Source: Candidatus Doudnabacteria bacterium RIFCSPHIGHO2_02_FULL_42_25 (lineage in GTDB: Bacteria > Patescibacteriota > Doudnabacteria > UBA920 > O2-02-FULL-48-8). From it: DNA of 64,000 nt. A program made the position numbers and the translations under genes. The stretch spans positions 24,309 through 88,308 of the forward strand of contig MFEQ01000006.1 of assembly GCA_001777665.1 (NCBI GenBank), read 5' to 3'. Positions 11,263 to 27,139 of this stretch are shown one piece after another. Below the pieces are notes generated by a model that worked only from the letters and a program-made list of their open reading frames with translations, was not told the DNA's origin and searched no databases. The stretch's first letter is position 1. The number at the start of each line of letters is the position of its first letter.

Positions 11263-11337
11263 TGGCTGGGGAGGAAGGATTCGAACCTTCGAATGCCGCC
11301 TCCAAAGGGCGGTGCCTTACCGCTTGGCGACTCCCCA
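11263..11337 (-). tRNA. tRNA-Gln (anticodon UUG)
   Basis: Hand-folded cloverleaf. 7-bp acceptor stem UGGGGAG/CUCCCCA, T-arm GAAGG-UUCGAAU-CCUUC, anticodon stem CCGCC/GGCGG with loop CUUUGGA, discriminator G, encoded CCA. Confidence 0.8.
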
Positions 11338-14444: not shown

Positions 14445-14582
14445 AAGATTTCTACGAAAGTACGAATTCTCGAATTACGAACTGTTCGTAGTTTCGTAAG
14501 TTCGTATTTCGTAGATAGTTTACCACAAATCAAAAAAGAACTAAATCAGTTCTTCTGTTTACTTCTTACTGTTTACTAATTA

Positions 14583-15806: not shown

Positions 15807-15941
15807 ATGGAAAAGGTTTTTTGTGCAAACCCTAATAGCACCATCACGGACGCTACAAGCGAAGCGCGGGCGATCCGGGATCCATGCAGTGGACCCCGGA
15901 TCTCGGTCCGGGGTGGCAGCTATTTTTTGCCTATTAAACTC
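15807..15941 (+). other. Short GC-rich structured transcript or 44-codon ORF (MEKVFCANPNSTITDATSEARAIRDPCSGPRISVRGGSYFLPIKL) ending in an intrinsic terminator
   Basis: Terminator accccggatctcggtccggggtggcagctattttttgcc. Contains the ggatcccggatcgccc...gtagcgtccgkgatgg element (reverse orientation) also found at 49865-49922. Overlapped on the other strand by a 58-codon ORF (16093..15920). Confidence 0.3.
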
Positions 15942-16071: not shown

Positions 16072-16512
16072 TTATGCGTGGTTCTTGTTCCATAATTTTG
16101 GATTAATTTCTACATACTCTTTAAACCCAGGAAATTTTTGACATAACGCTTCTTCGGTCACACCATCGACGATGGCTTCCTCTAAAATCTTAACCGCTAG
16201 ACCCATATCCGATGGCATGATACTTGCTACATACATACTGACTTTATTTTCCAAATCTTTACGCGCTGACATGTGTACGTGCATATGAACTATATCCACC
16301 AGCGCGTGTAATTCATCAAAGTCTCGATGCAGTTCTTTCACAAACTCCAAAAACTGACTTTCGGAATCGATAAGATTGATATTTTGAACAACTTTCTGCG
16401 CAATGTCAGCCGCACGCTGTAAATCTATCCGACGTGAACGAATTAATTCCGCCAAAAACAAGGCGACATGTTTTGCAAACTCATTCTTATTATTATCGTT
16501 GGCTGGTGGCAT
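16072..16512 (-). CDS. Hypothetical protein (146 aa)
   Basis: ORF; no motif recognised. Confidence 0.35.
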   Translation of the reverse strand: MPPANDNNKNEFAKHVALFLAELIRSRRIDLQRAADIAQKVVQNINLIDSESQFLEFVKELHRDFDELHALVDIVHMHVHMSARKDLENKVSMYVASIMPSDMGLAVKILEEAIVDGVTEEALCQKFPGFKEYVEINPKLWNKNHA

Positions 16513-16537: not shown

Positions 16538-16638
16538 TTTAACCATTTCGAGGGCCGGTCAATTGACCGGTTAGCGAGAAATCGATTTTCCGAGAGTGAC
16601 TCCTCTTAGGAGGGATCTCTCACTTCGTTCGAGATGGG
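16538..16638 (+). repeat. Structured repeat family ccatttcga...GGAGGGATCTCTCACTTCGTTCGAGATGG, copy A
   Basis: Shares aaccatttcga, an internal GC hairpin (ggccggtcaattgaccgg), gagaaatcg and a 29-nt 3' block with copies at 19844-19919 and 27001-27082. 5' ccatttcga pairs with 3' tcgagatgg (one G-U pair). Confidence 0.7.
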
Positions 16639-16658
16639 GTAGGAGAGCCCGCTTCAGG

Positions 16659-19193
16659 TTAGAGAGACCGTTCTACTGCGGCTGGGCCAGTCTCTGCAGG
16701 AGACCCCAATTGTGTCCGTTTGAGAATTTCATCATACACTTCAGATCGAGGTTTTCCGTATTTCAAACGCGACAAATTACGAATAACCTGGGCGGATTGC
16801 TTATCAGCTCCATCTGGTTTTGGATAAGTCTCCATATTAAATGGGCGGGAAGCTGTGCCATTGATCATCAATTTCACATAGGCATTAAATCGATCAATGT
16901 TGATAACATCAAACTGATTAAACACCGGTGCAAATTCTTTAGCCATAATTTCCGCATCTTCGACACCGATCCGGAAAGCAGTAATCGTGCCGGTATTGCC
17001 AAACACCGCGTCTTTCATGCGAGTATCCAGAGCGGAGGAACCTTCTTTTTCCTGGGCAAGTTGAGAAATAAACTGATGAGCCATGATCAAATTGAGCCTG
17101 TACTTACGAGCCTCTGATAGAATAGTCGCGAAGCTATCCGTCACAAAGTTTTGAAATTCATCGACATAGAGATAAAAGTCTCGTCGATTTTGTTCTGGAA
17201 TATCAGCTCTAGAAAGCGCGGCCATCTGGAGTTTCGAAACAATTATCAATCCCAGCAATTTGGCATTGACTTCTCCGGTTTTGCCTTTCGATAAATTGAT
17301 CAGCAAAATTTTACCTTCATCCATGACTTGCCGGAAATCAAATGCTGAATGCGGCTGGCCAATGATATTTCGCATCATTTCGTTTTCCACGAACCGACCG
17401 ACTTTAGAAATCAAATAACCCAGCATCTCTGATTTATGGAAATCAGAAGTTTTCGCCATTTCTTTTTCCCAAAAACTTCTCACTATCGGATCTTTGACTT
17501 TTGCGACTTTGTATTTCTGGAAATTCACATCAGTAAACATCCGTGGAATATCAGCAATTGTCCCCGGATATTGCTGATCTTCCATCAGAGTCAGCATGAC
17601 ATTGCGCATATTATGCTCAAACATCGGTCCGATAGTCTCTGGTGGGAAAAGTTTGTAGAAAATCGCAATCATTTCCTGAATCATGAAATCTTTTTGGGAT
17701 GGATCCTTGGCTTCGAGCATATTTAATCCGAGCGGACGATCCATATCAAACGGTTCAAACAAAATCACATCTTCAGCCCGTTCTTTCGGAATATATTGCA
17801 GTACATCTTCCACCAGATCACCGTGTGGGTCCACGATACAGATCCCTTCGCCATTTCGAATATCTTGGATGGCCATGTTTTTGAGTAATTCAGTTTTACC
17901 AGTACCAGTGCGCCCAATAATATACATGTGTCTCGTCCGATCCTCTCTCTGGATCCGAATTTTCGTATCTACGCCGCGATAGAGGTTGTGGCCGAGCAAC
18001 ACACCTTCAGCCGGGACATTGGTCGGGGCCGGTGCTTTTTTGGCTGCGACCCACTTGATATTCGGAGTTTCCAGATATGCTGTAGGCAGATGCCAGATAG
18101 ACGCCAATTCTTCGGTATTGAGAATCGCGGAAGTGTTTCGGAAAACTCGGAAAATATAATCAGAGATTACTTGTTGAGGTTTGCGTCGCAACACTTGAAA
18201 GCCATTGAACGGCGGCATAGAGTACTGCATAAATGAAGATAGAATATTTCGGAGGTTACTCTGGGCCATTTCTTGGCTGGGCGCAGAGCTGACCACGCGC
18301 AAATTAAATTTGTAACCAGGACGCGACGCTTTTTCTTCAAACTTTTTTATCATTTCCTGCTGCATCGGGGTCAGATGCAGCGGTTTGTTCATCCCTGAAC
18401 GATCCATGTACCCCATTTGTTGTTGCTGCGGTTTACCAGAATTCATAAATGAATTAAATGCTTCGCTGAAAAGTTTGAAAAATCCATTCATGCCTTTCAT
18501 TGCCATCGACGATGTAACCACATCAGGATTGCGACCTTGTTGAATTTCCAATGCATAATGCCGAGGTTTAGATTGCCAATGATCAGTGGAAGGACTGATC
18601 AGAAGCTGGATCGCAGCACCTTCGGTTTCTGTAAGTTTGGATAAACTGTTCGTCAGAGCATTCAAAGGATCAGTTTCCATGACTTTGTATGTCCGAACTG
18701 GAAAAGCGTAATCTTTCTGCAACGATAACTCCGCGGCAGTCACTACAGAATCTTTGCCGAAAATATTATAGGGTTTGATAACTTCAATATTCGCTTTTGA
18801 ATATTGAGCATGTAACTGTTTCTCGATTAAATCTTGCAAGTGCTTGGGCGTATTAATAAAAAATGAAATTTTCTTGGCATGGGCCGCGATTTCGACACTG
18901 ATATATTCATTGATCCCCAAAAAACTACTAACTCCGCGATCTTGGTGGGTCGTGATAGTCGTGAAGAACTGCTCGGCGATGGCTATCATTTCTTTTTCTT
19001 GCTTCTGTGGCTCTTTTTCCGGATCAGAATTTTCTTTTGGGATCGATACTTCGAGGAATACTGATTTCAAAACTCTTGGCGCCCAGGTTTTTTTCCGTAA
19101 GACATCGATAAAAACGTAATACAAAAGCAACCCACCCATTCCTAGGATGGCGATCAGTATCACCCAAAAAATTATCATTGCTGGACTAGACAT
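16659..19193 (-). CDS. VirD4/TraG/TraD-like type IV secretion coupling protein (T4CP) ATPase
   Basis: N-terminal TM helix. Walker A IIGRTGTGKT followed by ICIVDPHGDL (T4CP DPKG-like motif). Walker B LYVDEFQNF. 844 aa. Confidence 0.55.
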   Translation of the reverse strand: MSSPAMIIFWVILIAILGMGGLLLYYVFIDVLRKKTWAPRVLKSVFLEVSIPKENSDPEKEPQKQEKEMIAIAEQFFTTITTHQDRGVSSFLGINEYISVEIAAHAKKISFFINTPKHLQDLIEKQLHAQYSKANIEVIKPYNIFGKDSVVTAAELSLQKDYAFPVRTYKVMETDPLNALTNSLSKLTETEGAAIQLLISPSTDHWQSKPRHYALEIQQGRNPDVVTSSMAMKGMNGFFKLFSEAFNSFMNSGKPQQQQMGYMDRSGMNKPLHLTPMQQEMIKKFEEKASRPGYKFNLRVVSSAPSQEMAQSNLRNILSSFMQYSMPPFNGFQVLRRKPQQVISDYIFRVFRNTSAILNTEELASIWHLPTAYLETPNIKWVAAKKAPAPTNVPAEGVLLGHNLYRGVDTKIRIQREDRTRHMYIIGRTGTGKTELLKNMAIQDIRNGEGICIVDPHGDLVEDVLQYIPKERAEDVILFEPFDMDRPLGLNMLEAKDPSQKDFMIQEMIAIFYKLFPPETIGPMFEHNMRNVMLTLMEDQQYPGTIADIPRMFTDVNFQKYKVAKVKDPIVRSFWEKEMAKTSDFHKSEMLGYLISKVGRFVENEMMRNIIGQPHSAFDFRQVMDEGKILLINLSKGKTGEVNAKLLGLIIVSKLQMAALSRADIPEQNRRDFYLYVDEFQNFVTDSFATILSEARKYRLNLIMAHQFISQLAQEKEGSSALDTRMKDAVFGNTGTITAFRIGVEDAEIMAKEFAPVFNQFDVINIDRFNAYVKLMINGTASRPFNMETYPKPDGADKQSAQVIRNLSRLKYGKPRSEVYDEILKRTQLGSPAETGPAAVERSL

Positions 19194-19831
19194 CAGTTTG
19201 TAAACTTAAAAGTCGAAAGGATTTGATCAAAATCCAGTATTAAGTTCTCCTGATTATAAAAATGCGAATCAGACCCTAGTCTTAGGATATAAATTTTATT
19301 ATTGTTTGGTAAAAAAACATAAATAACTGCACCTCCTTCACCATCATATTTCTGTTTAAGGCCAATTTTATCATCTACTCTAAGCTCATTTTGCTGAAAG
19401 GAAAAACCGACTTCACTTTCATTGAGTATTTTGTCTATTTCATCTTTTGAATTATATTGTTCAGAACTTGTAAGCCATTGAGTTAGATTTAAATTCGACA
19501 AATTATTTTCTGTACTGATCTCTAATCCCGAAAACTCATCAATATCAAATATTATAGTTTTATCATCAGAGGAAATTATAAAATAACTTGGATATTTAAA
19601 CTCAAATCCATAATCTGTATTTGTATAAGTTTTCCAATCTGACGGAACGTCAGATTGCTCCGACCGAAGCGTCGGAGCTTCTTGACTGATCTCTGACTTT
19701 TTTATCTCCTGCCACCAGAAATATGAACCTGCGATTAATACTAAAAGCAAAACTCCAAGGACGGTATACAAAACCTTGTGGTTTAATACTGGATGGTTTG
19801 GTGGAATTGGGTTTTGGTTTTCTATTTGCAT
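19193..19831 (-). CDS. Membrane-anchored hypothetical protein, paralog 1 (shares ITQIAPTLRSEQSDVPSDWKTYTNT(E/D)YGFEFKYP module with next gene)
   Basis: N-terminal TM helix. About 90-nt stretch nearly identical to 20731-20810. Confidence 0.45.
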   Translation of the reverse strand: MQIENQNPIPPNHPVLNHKVLYTVLGVLLLVLIAGSYFWWQEIKKSEISQEAPTLRSEQSDVPSDWKTYTNTDYGFEFKYPSYFIISSDDKTIIFDIDEFSGLEISTENNLSNLNLTQWLTSSEQYNSKDEIDKILNESEVGFSFQQNELRVDDKIGLKQKYDGEGGAVIYVFLPNNNKIYILRLGSDSHFYNQENLILDFDQILSTFKFTN

Positions 19832-19843
19832 TGTTTATTATTT

Positions 19844-19919
19844 TAACCATTTCGACCCCGGACTTGATCCGGGGGAGAAATCGCTCTTGGGAGGGATCTC
19901 TCTCTTCGTTCGAGATGGG
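19844..19919 (+). repeat. ccatttcga...GGAGGGATCTCTCTCTTCGTTCGAGATGG element, copy B
   Basis: ttttaaccatttcga + hairpin ccccggacttgatccgggg + gagaaatcg + gggagggatctctctcttcgttcgagatggg. Confidence 0.7.
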
Positions 19920-19967
19920 AATCTACGTAGTTAACTACGTAATAAATTTTGTTTTTCTATTTGCACA

Positions 19968-24664: not shown

Positions 24665-24985
24665 GCTTGGGTGTATAATTATTTTAATAATTTGTATCAA
24701 CTAGGCGGCCCAGGGCCGTTTTTATGTTTTCATTTTCTTTTCTTCATCTTCTTTAAGTCGAAGGGGCGAGCACTTTGGCAAGAAAACTAGCTTTCGCAGG
24801 TCGCGTGGGGCGACCGAGAACGCAGGCTGCAAAAATTGGCTTTCCAATGCCGATTTTTGACAGCCGTTAGTTTTTTGCCAAAATGCGAGCAAAGCTTCGA
24901 CTTTATCCCCACTGTCCACAGTTTCCACAGGGTTGCTAAATATTTTTGTACAATCTAATAATTAGAGTACGTTTTAAAGTCAAGC

Positions 24986-26518: not shown

Positions 26519-26986
26519 TTGAATATTAATAAAAAATTTATGACAATAATAAGCAAAAGTCGGGTGAGGGTGAAGCCATATATCTTTGGGTTCAGTAAGG
26601 ACGAAGAGCCTGTGCTTAAAGTTGGGTTGAATTTGGAATCAGTCGGGACCAAAACCACCCAGCTCGCCAGCCTAGTCTATACCTTAGTGAAATTTGAGCT
26701 TATCCGCCGCGATGCTTACAGCCGTTGGCGAAAATATTTGAATGAGGTTGGGTTGAGACTTCAGGGTTTAATTTCTTACATGAATGTCCTGTACGATGAC
26801 GATCAACTCATCTATTCGCTGAAATCATATTATTACAAATCTGTTACCCCAGATTATGATAAATTGGCACTGCTTCGCGAAGCCAATGAGCTTCTGGAAA
26901 CGCTTAAAGAAAAGGTTGAAAAAATGAAACTCTTGTCAGAATTTCAAGTCCAGTCTATTCGCAATATAGTCCCACCCCAGACTTGA
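26519..26986 (+). CDS. Hypothetical protein (155 aa)
   Basis: ORF only. Stop overlaps terminator hairpin ccaccccagacttgatctgggtggttttt. Confidence 0.35.
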   Translation: MNINKKFMTIISKSRVRVKPYIFGFSKDEEPVLKVGLNLESVGTKTTQLASLVYTLVKFELIRRDAYSRWRKYLNEVGLRLQGLISYMNVLYDDDQLIYSLKSYYYKSVTPDYDKLALLREANELLETLKEKVEKMKLLSEFQVQSIRNIVPPQT

Positions 26987-27000
26987 TCTGGGTGGTTTTT

Positions 27001-27082
27001 TACCACTTCGAACGATTAGTGAGAAGTCGCTCCTACAAGGGTTAGCGCTTGGAGGAGGGATCTCTCACTTCGTTCGAGATGG
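27001..27082 (+). repeat. ccacttcga...GGAGGAGGGATCTCTCACTTCGTTCGAGATGG element, copy C
   Basis: Shares 5' accaYttcga, gagaaRtcg and the 29-nt 3' block with copies A and B. Confidence 0.65.
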
Positions 27083-27139
27083 TAAAACGCTTTCGCTGGG
27101 ATGGTAAAAAAAGTCATGATTTAGTAGAATATGTAGGCT

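Follow-up and report, generated by a model that had tools for sequence, protein, structure and literature searches.

Inverted hairpin pairs in a Candidatus Doudnabacteria genome as probable Ssn-related repeats that have lost their GIY-YIG nuclease gene

Three intergenic repeats and their hairpin arms

The DNA considered here, referred to as the window, is a 64-kb stretch (64,000 nucleotides) from Candidatus Doudnabacteria bacterium RIFCSPHIGHO2_02_FULL_42_25, a tiny-genome groundwater organism, in which one repeat is present in three copies, A, B and C, all on the + strand (Table 1). The stretch corresponds to part of contig MFFA01000003.1 (GCA_001780055.1). Each copy occupies an intergenic space, as had originally been predicted and as is borne out by the ORF borders on its two sides, which lie at 16512 and 16659 for copy A, 19831 and 19968 for copy B, and 26986 and 27140 for copy C. 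Copy A has an 844-aa T4SS-coupling-protein-like gene, which stops on one side of it, and a 146-aa ORF, which starts on the other, as its - strand neighbours. The neighbours of copy B are also encoded on the - strand, and they are a 212-aa PsbP-like gene whose start follows the copy after 13 nt and a 349-aa gene whose stop precedes it by 50 nt. Copy C has + strand neighbours, a 155-aa ORF that stops before it and recR, which starts after it. The orientation common to the three copies is not significant by itself, since it would arise by chance in 1 case in 4. Copies A and B, which share this orientation, bracket a two-gene block (16659-19831) consisting of the T4SS-coupling-protein-like and PsbP-like genes, an arrangement that resembles the repeat-gene-repeat configuration discussed for Neisseria and may be a matter of chance.

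The signature of the repeat is a 29-nt 3' block, GGAGGGATCTCTC(A/T)CTTCGTTCGAGATGG, which occurs on the + strand at 16609-16637, 19890-19918 and 27054-27082 with 0 mismatches to the degenerate pattern, where 100 shuffles give an expectation of 0. A 20-mer search allowing up to 3 mismatches found no further copy of this block within the 64-kb window. The remaining parts described in the original prediction, namely a 5' block, (A)ACCAYTTCGA, a gagaaRtc block and a variable inner hairpin, are likewise found in all three copies, so that the repeat as first described from the letters of the DNA is real.

Table 1. Hairpin features of the window (bits and E, covariance-model scores for a single arm; - strand arms are given in the - strand reading).
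Feature	Position	Strand	Basis or remark
Copy A, whole ORF-less inverted pair of hairpin modules	16541..16639	+	covariance model, flanking ORFs
Copy A left arm: tag AACC, stem ATTTC/GAAAT, tandem GA..GA	16541..16583	+	11.5 bits
Copy A spacer with small hairpin CTCCTCTTAGGAGG	16584..16613	+	most likely the place of the deleted nuclease ORF
Copy A right arm, CCCC-CATCTCGAACGAAGTGAGAGATC	16614..16639	-	35.2 bits, E=7e-7
Copy B, whole inverted pair	19845..19920	+	29-nt block, flanking ORFs
Copy B left arm, AACC-CATTTCGA-CCCCGGACTTGATCCGGGG-GAGAAATC	19845..19882	+	24.2 bits, E=6e-4
Copy B right arm, TCCC-CATCTCGAACGAAGAGAGAGATC, one loop-side substitution	19895..19920	-	31 bits, E=9e-6
Copy C, whole inverted pair	27001..27084	+	29-nt block, flanking ORFs
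Copy C left arm, TACC-CACTTCGA-ACGATTAGT-GAGAAGTC	27001..27028	+	34.6 bits, E=1e-6
Copy C right arm, TACC-CATCTCGAACGAAGTGAGAGATC	27059..27084	-	40.9 bits, E=2e-8
Hairpin CCACCCCAGACTTGATCTGGGTGG followed by a T-run, just upstream of copy C	26972..26995	+	terminator-like

The two ends of each copy are complementary, and the question is what this complementarity reflects. The right arm, GATCTCTCACTTCGTTCGAGATGG, is the reverse complement of CCATCTCGAACGAAGTGAGAGATC, and in this opposite-strand reading the 3' block is the same module as the 5' part of the element, from which it follows that the copies are inverted pairs. Each copy thus comprises two inverted examples of a single hairpin module of ~24 nt, CCAYYTCGA-(inner hairpin)-GAGARRTC, arranged around a small, structured and self-complementary spacer, with the left arm having the form CCAYTTCGA-(hairpin)-GAGAARTC. 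The complementarity of the ends is explained by this inverted arrangement of one module, each module being a hairpin in its own right. In every arm the module forms a 5-bp stem that starts with an A-T pair and is followed by a tandem G·A and then by an inner stem-loop.

A single long hairpin between the left and right arms was considered as the selected structure and rejected. The second stem pair of the left arm, compared over 20 pairs from the window and other genomes, is T-A in 11, C-G in 8 and T-G in 1, and a long hairpin across the arms would have a C-A mismatch in 8 of the 20; compensation takes place inside the arm rather than between the two arms, and therefore the arms fold separately. 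The left arm of copy C provides an example within the window, as its stem pair has changed on both sides from T-A to C-G. Among 37 different arms from many phyla both-side changes are seen in 6 of the 7 pairs, where it is the number of pair types that is informative rather than the percentage paired, given that this set was chosen for pairing. A further constant feature is the C that lies directly 3' of the palindrome, which is present in all six window arms and forms an invariant column in the 37. It is also retained in the left arm of copy A, where the inner part is 24 nt long, made up of the hairpin GGCCGGTCAATTGACCGG plus TTAGC, an insert that accounts for the low score of this arm.

The conserved framework surrounds parts that vary. 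All three copies, together with 17 relatives, are inverted pairs of unlike arms (ATTTC versus ATCTC stems) with self-complementary spacers, in which the left-arm inner hairpin and the spacer behave as freely replaceable modules. Within the window the inner hairpins and spacers differ strongly among copies A, B and C, such that the copies are not recent duplicates of one another. The predicted folds of the copies are more stable than those of shuffled sequences (z = -3 to -8), and both strands fold about equally well.

The original prediction had also noted that the hairpin CCCCGGACTTGATCCGGGG of copy B (19856-19874) recurs in similar form immediately before copy C, where it was indeed located at 26975-26993, and had taken this as consistent with modular rearrangement. 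The replaceable nature of the left-arm inner hairpin and spacer agrees with this idea; membership of the upstream hairpin (26972-26995) in the repeat element, on the other hand, is only putative, and from its sequence this hairpin looks like a terminator. A nearly identical hairpin, whose stem differs by compensatory changes, serves as the inner hairpin in copy B (left arm) and in the locus L015, and the stop codon TGA (26984-26986) of the 155-aa ORF falls within the loop, ACTTGAT, of the upstream hairpin. Copy C is interrupted in a scaffold of the same population from another sample (L034, 545-760), where an N-run inside the copy is followed by a different left flank; after the gap there is a variant left arm and spacer, with compensatory changes in the spacer hairpin. 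The assembly has probably broken at the repeat here, which points tentatively to another copy or allele within the population.

How many such hairpins are there in the window? A covariance-model search, put forward in the original prediction as the appropriate check, was run over the 64 kb with a single-arm model and with filters off, and it recovered exactly the six arms of copies A-C and nothing else of significance, whereas a looser hairpin detector was too noisy over the whole window (49 matches against 41 expected). Two inverted GC-rich hairpins with CC tags are present at 15841-15916 on the - strand, CCACCCCGGAccgagaTCCGGGGTCC followed by GGATCCCGGA...TCCGTGATGG, which look like a diverged pair of the same hairpin class, although the arm model scores them at only 9.3 bits (E=5).

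The same arms around a nuclease gene in related genomes

The exact 20-mer of the right arm was found in 31 stretches of a collection of species-representative genomes, a number to be set against the ~17 chance matches expected for 19 specified bases, and several of the 31 are clearly coding. Real arm pairs are found in several Doudnabacteria MAGs, Uhrbacteria, Chloroflexota and Sandaracinaceae, and the right arm occurs alone in Anaerococcus/Peptoniphilaceae, Bacteroidota and Verrucomicrobiia MAGs, the tags of the right-arm sequence in other phyla being TGTC or TGCC. In the relatives the single-arm covariance model finds arms only as convergent pairs on opposite strands.

In some relatives the arms enclose a gene. 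For instance, in the Doudnabacteria genome JAIFWV01 (L025) a 92-aa ORF is located between both arms, in the order CCATCTCGAACGAAAGTGAGAGATC-tcggtgttaaaacat-ATG...TAA-tcgcga-GATTTCTCGCTTCACTCGAAATGG, and cassettes in which the same arms surround a 92-93-aa single-domain GIY-YIG ORF are found here and at five other loci (L035, L036, L124, L127 and L128). The upstream arm in L127 is identical to the right arm of the window over 24 nt, and the + orientation of the window copies is antisense to the GIY-YIG gene of the cassettes. In the 92-aa protein of the Doudnabacteria cassette the only domain is PF01541 (E=4e-14), and the protein shares 46% identity (E=5e-28) with the gonococcal ssnA-type ORF, with conservation of the residues equivalent to Y6, Y17 and E64, the catalytic Tyr, Tyr and Glu. 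Across 24 homologues Y15, R61, E62 and K63 are invariant and Y5 is nearly so. The only solved structures matched by the profile of the nuclease family are those of the UPF0213 proteins BH0048 (PDB 1zg2, E=1e-7) and EF2693 (PDB 1ywl, E=3e-5), which are likewise small single-domain GIY-YIG proteins and represent distant relatives.

Full cassettes and empty pairs can be matched to one another directly. An ORF-less copy in L006 (7545-7694) retains the first ~9 and the last ~5 codons of the ORF, in L124 a full cassette is followed by a precise ORF-less copy, and copy B, read on the - strand as GAGAGATCCCTCCCAAGAGCGATTTCTC, corresponds to the L036 cassette minus its ORF. Given that the same arms flank the nuclease gene in relatives and that remnants of the ORF persist in some copies, the window copies are most likely ORF-deleted derivatives of an ssn cassette. 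No ssn gene was detected within the 64-kb window when it was searched with the nuclease by tblastn, and copy C gave no blastn match in the plasmid and phage collections. A scan of viral contigs returned 0 exact arm matches and only 12 ssn homologues, indicating that carriage by phage is rare, and a full-text search of the literature with the arm sequence strings gave only chance primer matches.

The small size, terminal inverted repeats and dispersed intergenic copies are also what would be expected of a classical MITE, an insertion-sequence derivative mobilised by a DDE transposase. However, no target-site duplication flanks any of the ~20 copies, the full-length relatives carry the 92-aa GIY-YIG gene rather than a transposase, and each arm is itself a hairpin with covarying pairs. 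With neither duplications nor a transposase present, a MITE of this type is excluded and is hardly credible as an origin of the repeats. Site specificity of the homing-endonuclease type was considered as well and is unlikely, as the protein has no DNA-binding domain and the copies reside in unrelated flanks.

The occupancy of orthologous intergenic sites varies among related genomes. At the site of copy A the flanking genes abut in L013, and other, unrelated sequence is present in L006 and L025; at the site of copy C, upstream of recR, the element is absent from three genomes (L129, L130 and L131). The site upstream of dnaX holds the full cassette in L025 (4250-4605), L035 (1440-1816) and L127 (167-519), in each case directly upstream of dnaX and downstream of its promoter-like -10 box. 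There is no cassette at this site in the window or in L006, and in L013 (2090-2230) a diverged ORF-less pair with ATCGC and ATTGC stems is found. The dnaX site may be either an old inherited insertion or a preferred site. In the window, the - strand directly upstream of the dnaX start (14460-14525) contains a palindromic TACGAA/TTCGTA run, ctacgaaatacgaacttacgaaactacgaacagttcgtaattcgagaattcgtactttcgtag.

The site upstream of dnaB has a cassette in L036 and a different inverted-repeat element in the window. The latter is ~150 nt in length (24755-24905; AAGTCGAAGGGGCGAGCACTTTGGCAAGAAAACTAGC ... GTTAGTTTTTTGCCAAAATGCGAGCAAAGCTTCGACTT) and fills the cysS-dnaB spacer; a promoter-like TTGACA...TATAAT and a small upstream hairpin are common to the window and L036. 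Judged by sequence comparison, the occupancy pattern fits gain and loss at many sites; the compared genomes are too diverged for exact insertion boundaries, such that insertion and loss are indistinguishable.

Relation to known palindromic repeats and their enzymes

The closest counterpart is the Ssn/SRM system, described by Chenal et al. (2025, Nat Commun 16:2388; PMC11893778) for the NTS of Neisseria and for the wider group of 'Ssn-related motifs'. In this system ssnA, a 94-aa single-domain GIY-YIG gene, lies between motifs, and ssn homologues in general (single-domain GIY-YIG genes of the cd10448 type) have at least one motif nearby in 71% of cases and motifs on both sides in 42%. The hairpin is recognised by SsnA exclusively as ssDNA and in a single orientation, with cleavage a few nt to the 5' side of the tag. 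Binding depends critically on the C that follows the palindrome and cutting on the 3 nt that precede it, and removal, replacement or extension of the NTS loop is tolerated (PMC11893778). The enzyme lowers transformation by NTS-bearing DNA, and the IS-like NTS-ssnA-NTS architecture was remarked upon by the authors, who proposed domestication (PMC11893778).

The window arms are also hairpin repeats of 20-50 nt, multi-copy and intergenic, with flanks that define an orientation, and they have the C directly after the palindrome and a loop that can be replaced or extended; the variable inner hairpin agrees with the loop tolerance reported for the NTS. CTTGA-type loops recur in Ssn-related hairpins of other phyla. 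Inverted repeats on both sides of a ~92-94-aa single-domain GIY-YIG gene are seen in the Doudnabacteria relatives, and the window itself has ORF-less pairs only. The arms differ in tag and stem. Firstly, the SRM/NTS tag is (C/T)GTC, whereas the tags of the window are AACC, TACC, CCCC and TCCC, with only the last C in common; secondly, the continuous 8-9-bp stem of the SRM/NTS is replaced by a 5-bp stem, a tandem G·A and a replaceable inner hairpin of 7-24 nt. The published SRM string, HGTCWYN(0-2)YYVSBRHN(0-5)WNVSBRGN(0-2)RNCYNB, has 0 matches in the window, none of the six arms included; it matches the gonococcal NTS and none of the tested interrupted-stem arms from other phyla. The Patescibacteria (CPR) are not mentioned in the main text of PMC11893778.

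The CGTC-tagged REPs, defined by Di Nocera, De Gregorio and Rocco (2013; PMC3733652) and including dRS3 of Neisseria and RPE-4 and RPE-6 of Rickettsia, represent a second point of comparison. They are mostly head-to-head dimers with structured spacers and have, according to the authors, no dedicated enzyme (PMC3733652). The window arms share with them the short palindrome, a stem that begins with A-T pairs, an unpaired 5' tag ending in C, a C-rich tail and an intergenic location, and the window copies and the 17 relatives are similarly head-to-head dimers, often heterodimers, with structured spacers. Unlike these REPs, which have CGTC, TGTC or CCTC as the tag, a continuous 8-9-bp stem, a 4-5-nt loop and the tail CCA, the window arms combine the tags AACC, TACC, CCCC or TCCC with a stem that is broken after 5 bp by the tandem G·A, a loop region of 7-24 nt and a tail of CCC or CG, and their stem starts with A-T and continues with T-A or C-G. 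With this tag and interrupted stem they fall outside the four families of CGTC-tagged REPs. The enzyme missing from PMC3733652 has its counterpart here and in Chenal et al. in the associated GIY-YIG ssn gene.

A third comparison is with REPINs and their RAYT enzymes (Bertels and Rainey 2011; PMC3116915), where two inverted REP hairpins and a spacer form a non-autonomous unit, a nuclease gene is associated with, and lies between, the same hairpins, and the enzyme acts on single-stranded hairpin DNA. The enzyme in the present case, however, belongs to the GIY-YIG hydrolases rather than to the IS200-like HUH tyrosine transposases, and there is no GTAG tag.

The association of nuclease and hairpin is not peculiar to these relatives. 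Homologues of the nuclease number at least 7,962 at E<=1e-5, many of them on contigs of ~1 kb, and 80 metagenome loci were picked by protein homology only and scored with a strict detector of the form C-AT-stem ... stem-AT-C with 5 perfect pairs. A correctly oriented hairpin is found within 150 nt upstream at 43 of 74 loci (58%) and a mirror-image hairpin downstream at 37 of 75 (49%), compared with 2.4% in shuffled flanks and 4-7% in windows >500 nt away when the same detector is applied. The hairpin lies at a median of 26 nt from the ATG on the upstream side and 8 nt from the stop on the downstream side, and the upstream tag is TGTC at 31 of 48 loci and CGTC at 7 of 48. Two hairpin types are present among the loci, one with the stem interrupted by the tandem G·A and one with a continuous stem of 8-9 bp, and the type follows the protein: the nearest protein neighbour has the same hairpin type at all 55 of 55 loci, and 0 of 2000 permutations reach the observed statistic. 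Across the phyla sampled, the nuclease family and its flanking hairpins, as compared at the sequence level, diversify together. In N. gonorrhoeae, Azospirillum lipoferum, Sinorhizobium meliloti and Novosphingobium aromaticivorans the homologous gene is likewise located between the species' own CGTC-tagged palindromes.

On this basis each window copy is, with a probability of about 0.8, a head-to-head pair of SRM hairpins, of the class that includes the Neisseria NTS/dRS3 and the 'CGTC-tagged REPs', from which the ssn gene between the arms has been lost. Since the nuclease of the relatives is 46% identical to the gonococcal ORF and has kept the catalytic Tyr, Tyr and Glu, the published Ssn/SRM system largely explains the repeats, which would represent a variant form of it in a CPR bacterium.

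Could the hairpins nonetheless act at the level of RNA? Small RNA, terminator and REP-like element had been offered together as possible functions in the original prediction, and only the last of these holds. An intrinsic terminator is excluded, as neither strand has a U-run or T-run after the elements. A separate gene for a small regulatory RNA, or a riboswitch-like element, in three copies would be in keeping with the conserved sequence, the predicted structure and the intergenic location, but it is very improbable. There is no sign of promoter or terminator logic, the two strands fold about equally well, and the orientation to the flanking genes is inconsistent. The best-conserved portion belongs, as one arm, to an inverted repeat that surrounds a protein-coding gene in relatives, and the covariance-model matches are invariably convergent pairs on opposite strands. 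The only Rfam match in the whole window at the gathering threshold is a tRNA gene (11266-11337, - strand, 63.6 bits), and at E<=10 nothing relevant emerges around copy A or around the full cassette. A role as a host-level RNA hairpin, that is to say a REP-like mRNA stabiliser, processing site or attenuator co-transcribed within an operon, with or without the nuclease, is not exclusive of the Ssn reading and has the short spacers between co-directional genes occupied by copies A and B in its favour, including the 13 nt between copy B and a start codon, as well as the stability of the folds relative to shuffles; REPs of both superfamilies, too, mostly follow coding regions and are believed to function at the RNA level (PMC3733652). 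It is nevertheless an unlikely explanation, given the equal folding of both strands, the inconsistent orientation with respect to the flanking genes (copies A and B antisense, copy C sense), the want of an Rfam family or of a U-run after the hairpins and, finally, the failure of SsnA to bind RNA (PMC11893778).

A proposed mechanism and its significance

If the window arms are recognised in the manner of their Neisseria counterparts, there would, by analogy, be one cleavable arm per strand, the left arm on the + strand and the right arm on the - strand. A cognate Ssn would then bind the left arm as + strand ssDNA and the right arm as - strand ssDNA and, with one cleavable arm on each strand, would cut just outside either end of the element. 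The ssDNA substrate could arise in uptake by natural competence, in replication or in repair, and incoming ssDNA would as a result be restricted or trimmed. Repair or recombination at the arms might also lead to the spread or loss of the cassette and of its ORF-less derivatives, analogous to REPINs and RAYT. The GIY-YIG nucleases are not known to have a DNA-joining (strand-joining) chemistry, and so any mobility must depend upon host repair.

A tentative extension of this scheme is that the ORF-less pairs are REPIN-like non-autonomous elements that are still spreading, or are copied and erased, via the action of Ssn on ssDNA; that the ssn cassettes make up a class of mobile elements, selfish or domesticated, in which a GIY-YIG hydrolase takes the place of a transposase; and that the tandem-G·A form constitutes a large uncatalogued branch, extending over CPR, Chloroflexota, Bacteroidota, Myxococcota and Bacillota, that was missed by the published motif.

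Alternatively, the copies may be orphan relics that descend from an ssn cassette in a genome from which the nuclease has been lost, where they persist as palindromes that are neutral or of slight use and no longer have any Ssn-dependent activity. The empty window is consistent with such a state: no ssn gene occurs in its 64 kb, and the site upstream of dnaX, which bears a cassette in three relatives, is vacant. Furthermore, the Doudnabacteria Ssn has at least 7,962 homologues, of which the best 120 include none that is named from this MAG, and 19% of SRM-rich genomes are reported to have no ssn homologue (PMC11893778). However, the search for the gene covered 64 kb of the genome, MAGs tend to drop multi-copy cassettes, and the stem, the G·A pairs, the C after the palindrome and the whole of the right arm are intact while the spacers and inner hairpins have diverged freely. 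Such preservation of the parts predicted to contact the protein, amid diverged spacers and inner hairpins, suggests continued constraint, and a purely relict status is accordingly regarded as somewhat improbable.

What does the assignment of the repeats to the Ssn/SRM system mean? At the level of the window, an unexplained repeat of a Candidate Phyla Radiation genome becomes tied to an experimentally characterised family of enzymes. At the level of the family, the hairpin class is broader than the published search pattern, with about half of the typed loci having the tandem-G·A-interrupted stem that the pattern misses, and the new pairings of nuclease and hairpin are of practical interest as ssDNA-cutting tools. 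The ORF-less pairs, the copies with ORF remnants and the differing occupancy of sites also provide comparative evidence for the IS-like behaviour that Chenal et al. only hypothesised. Finally, the Ssn system is extended to the CPR bacteria. As these organisms are thought to depend on DNA uptake, a restriction system that acts on ssDNA would be relevant to them.
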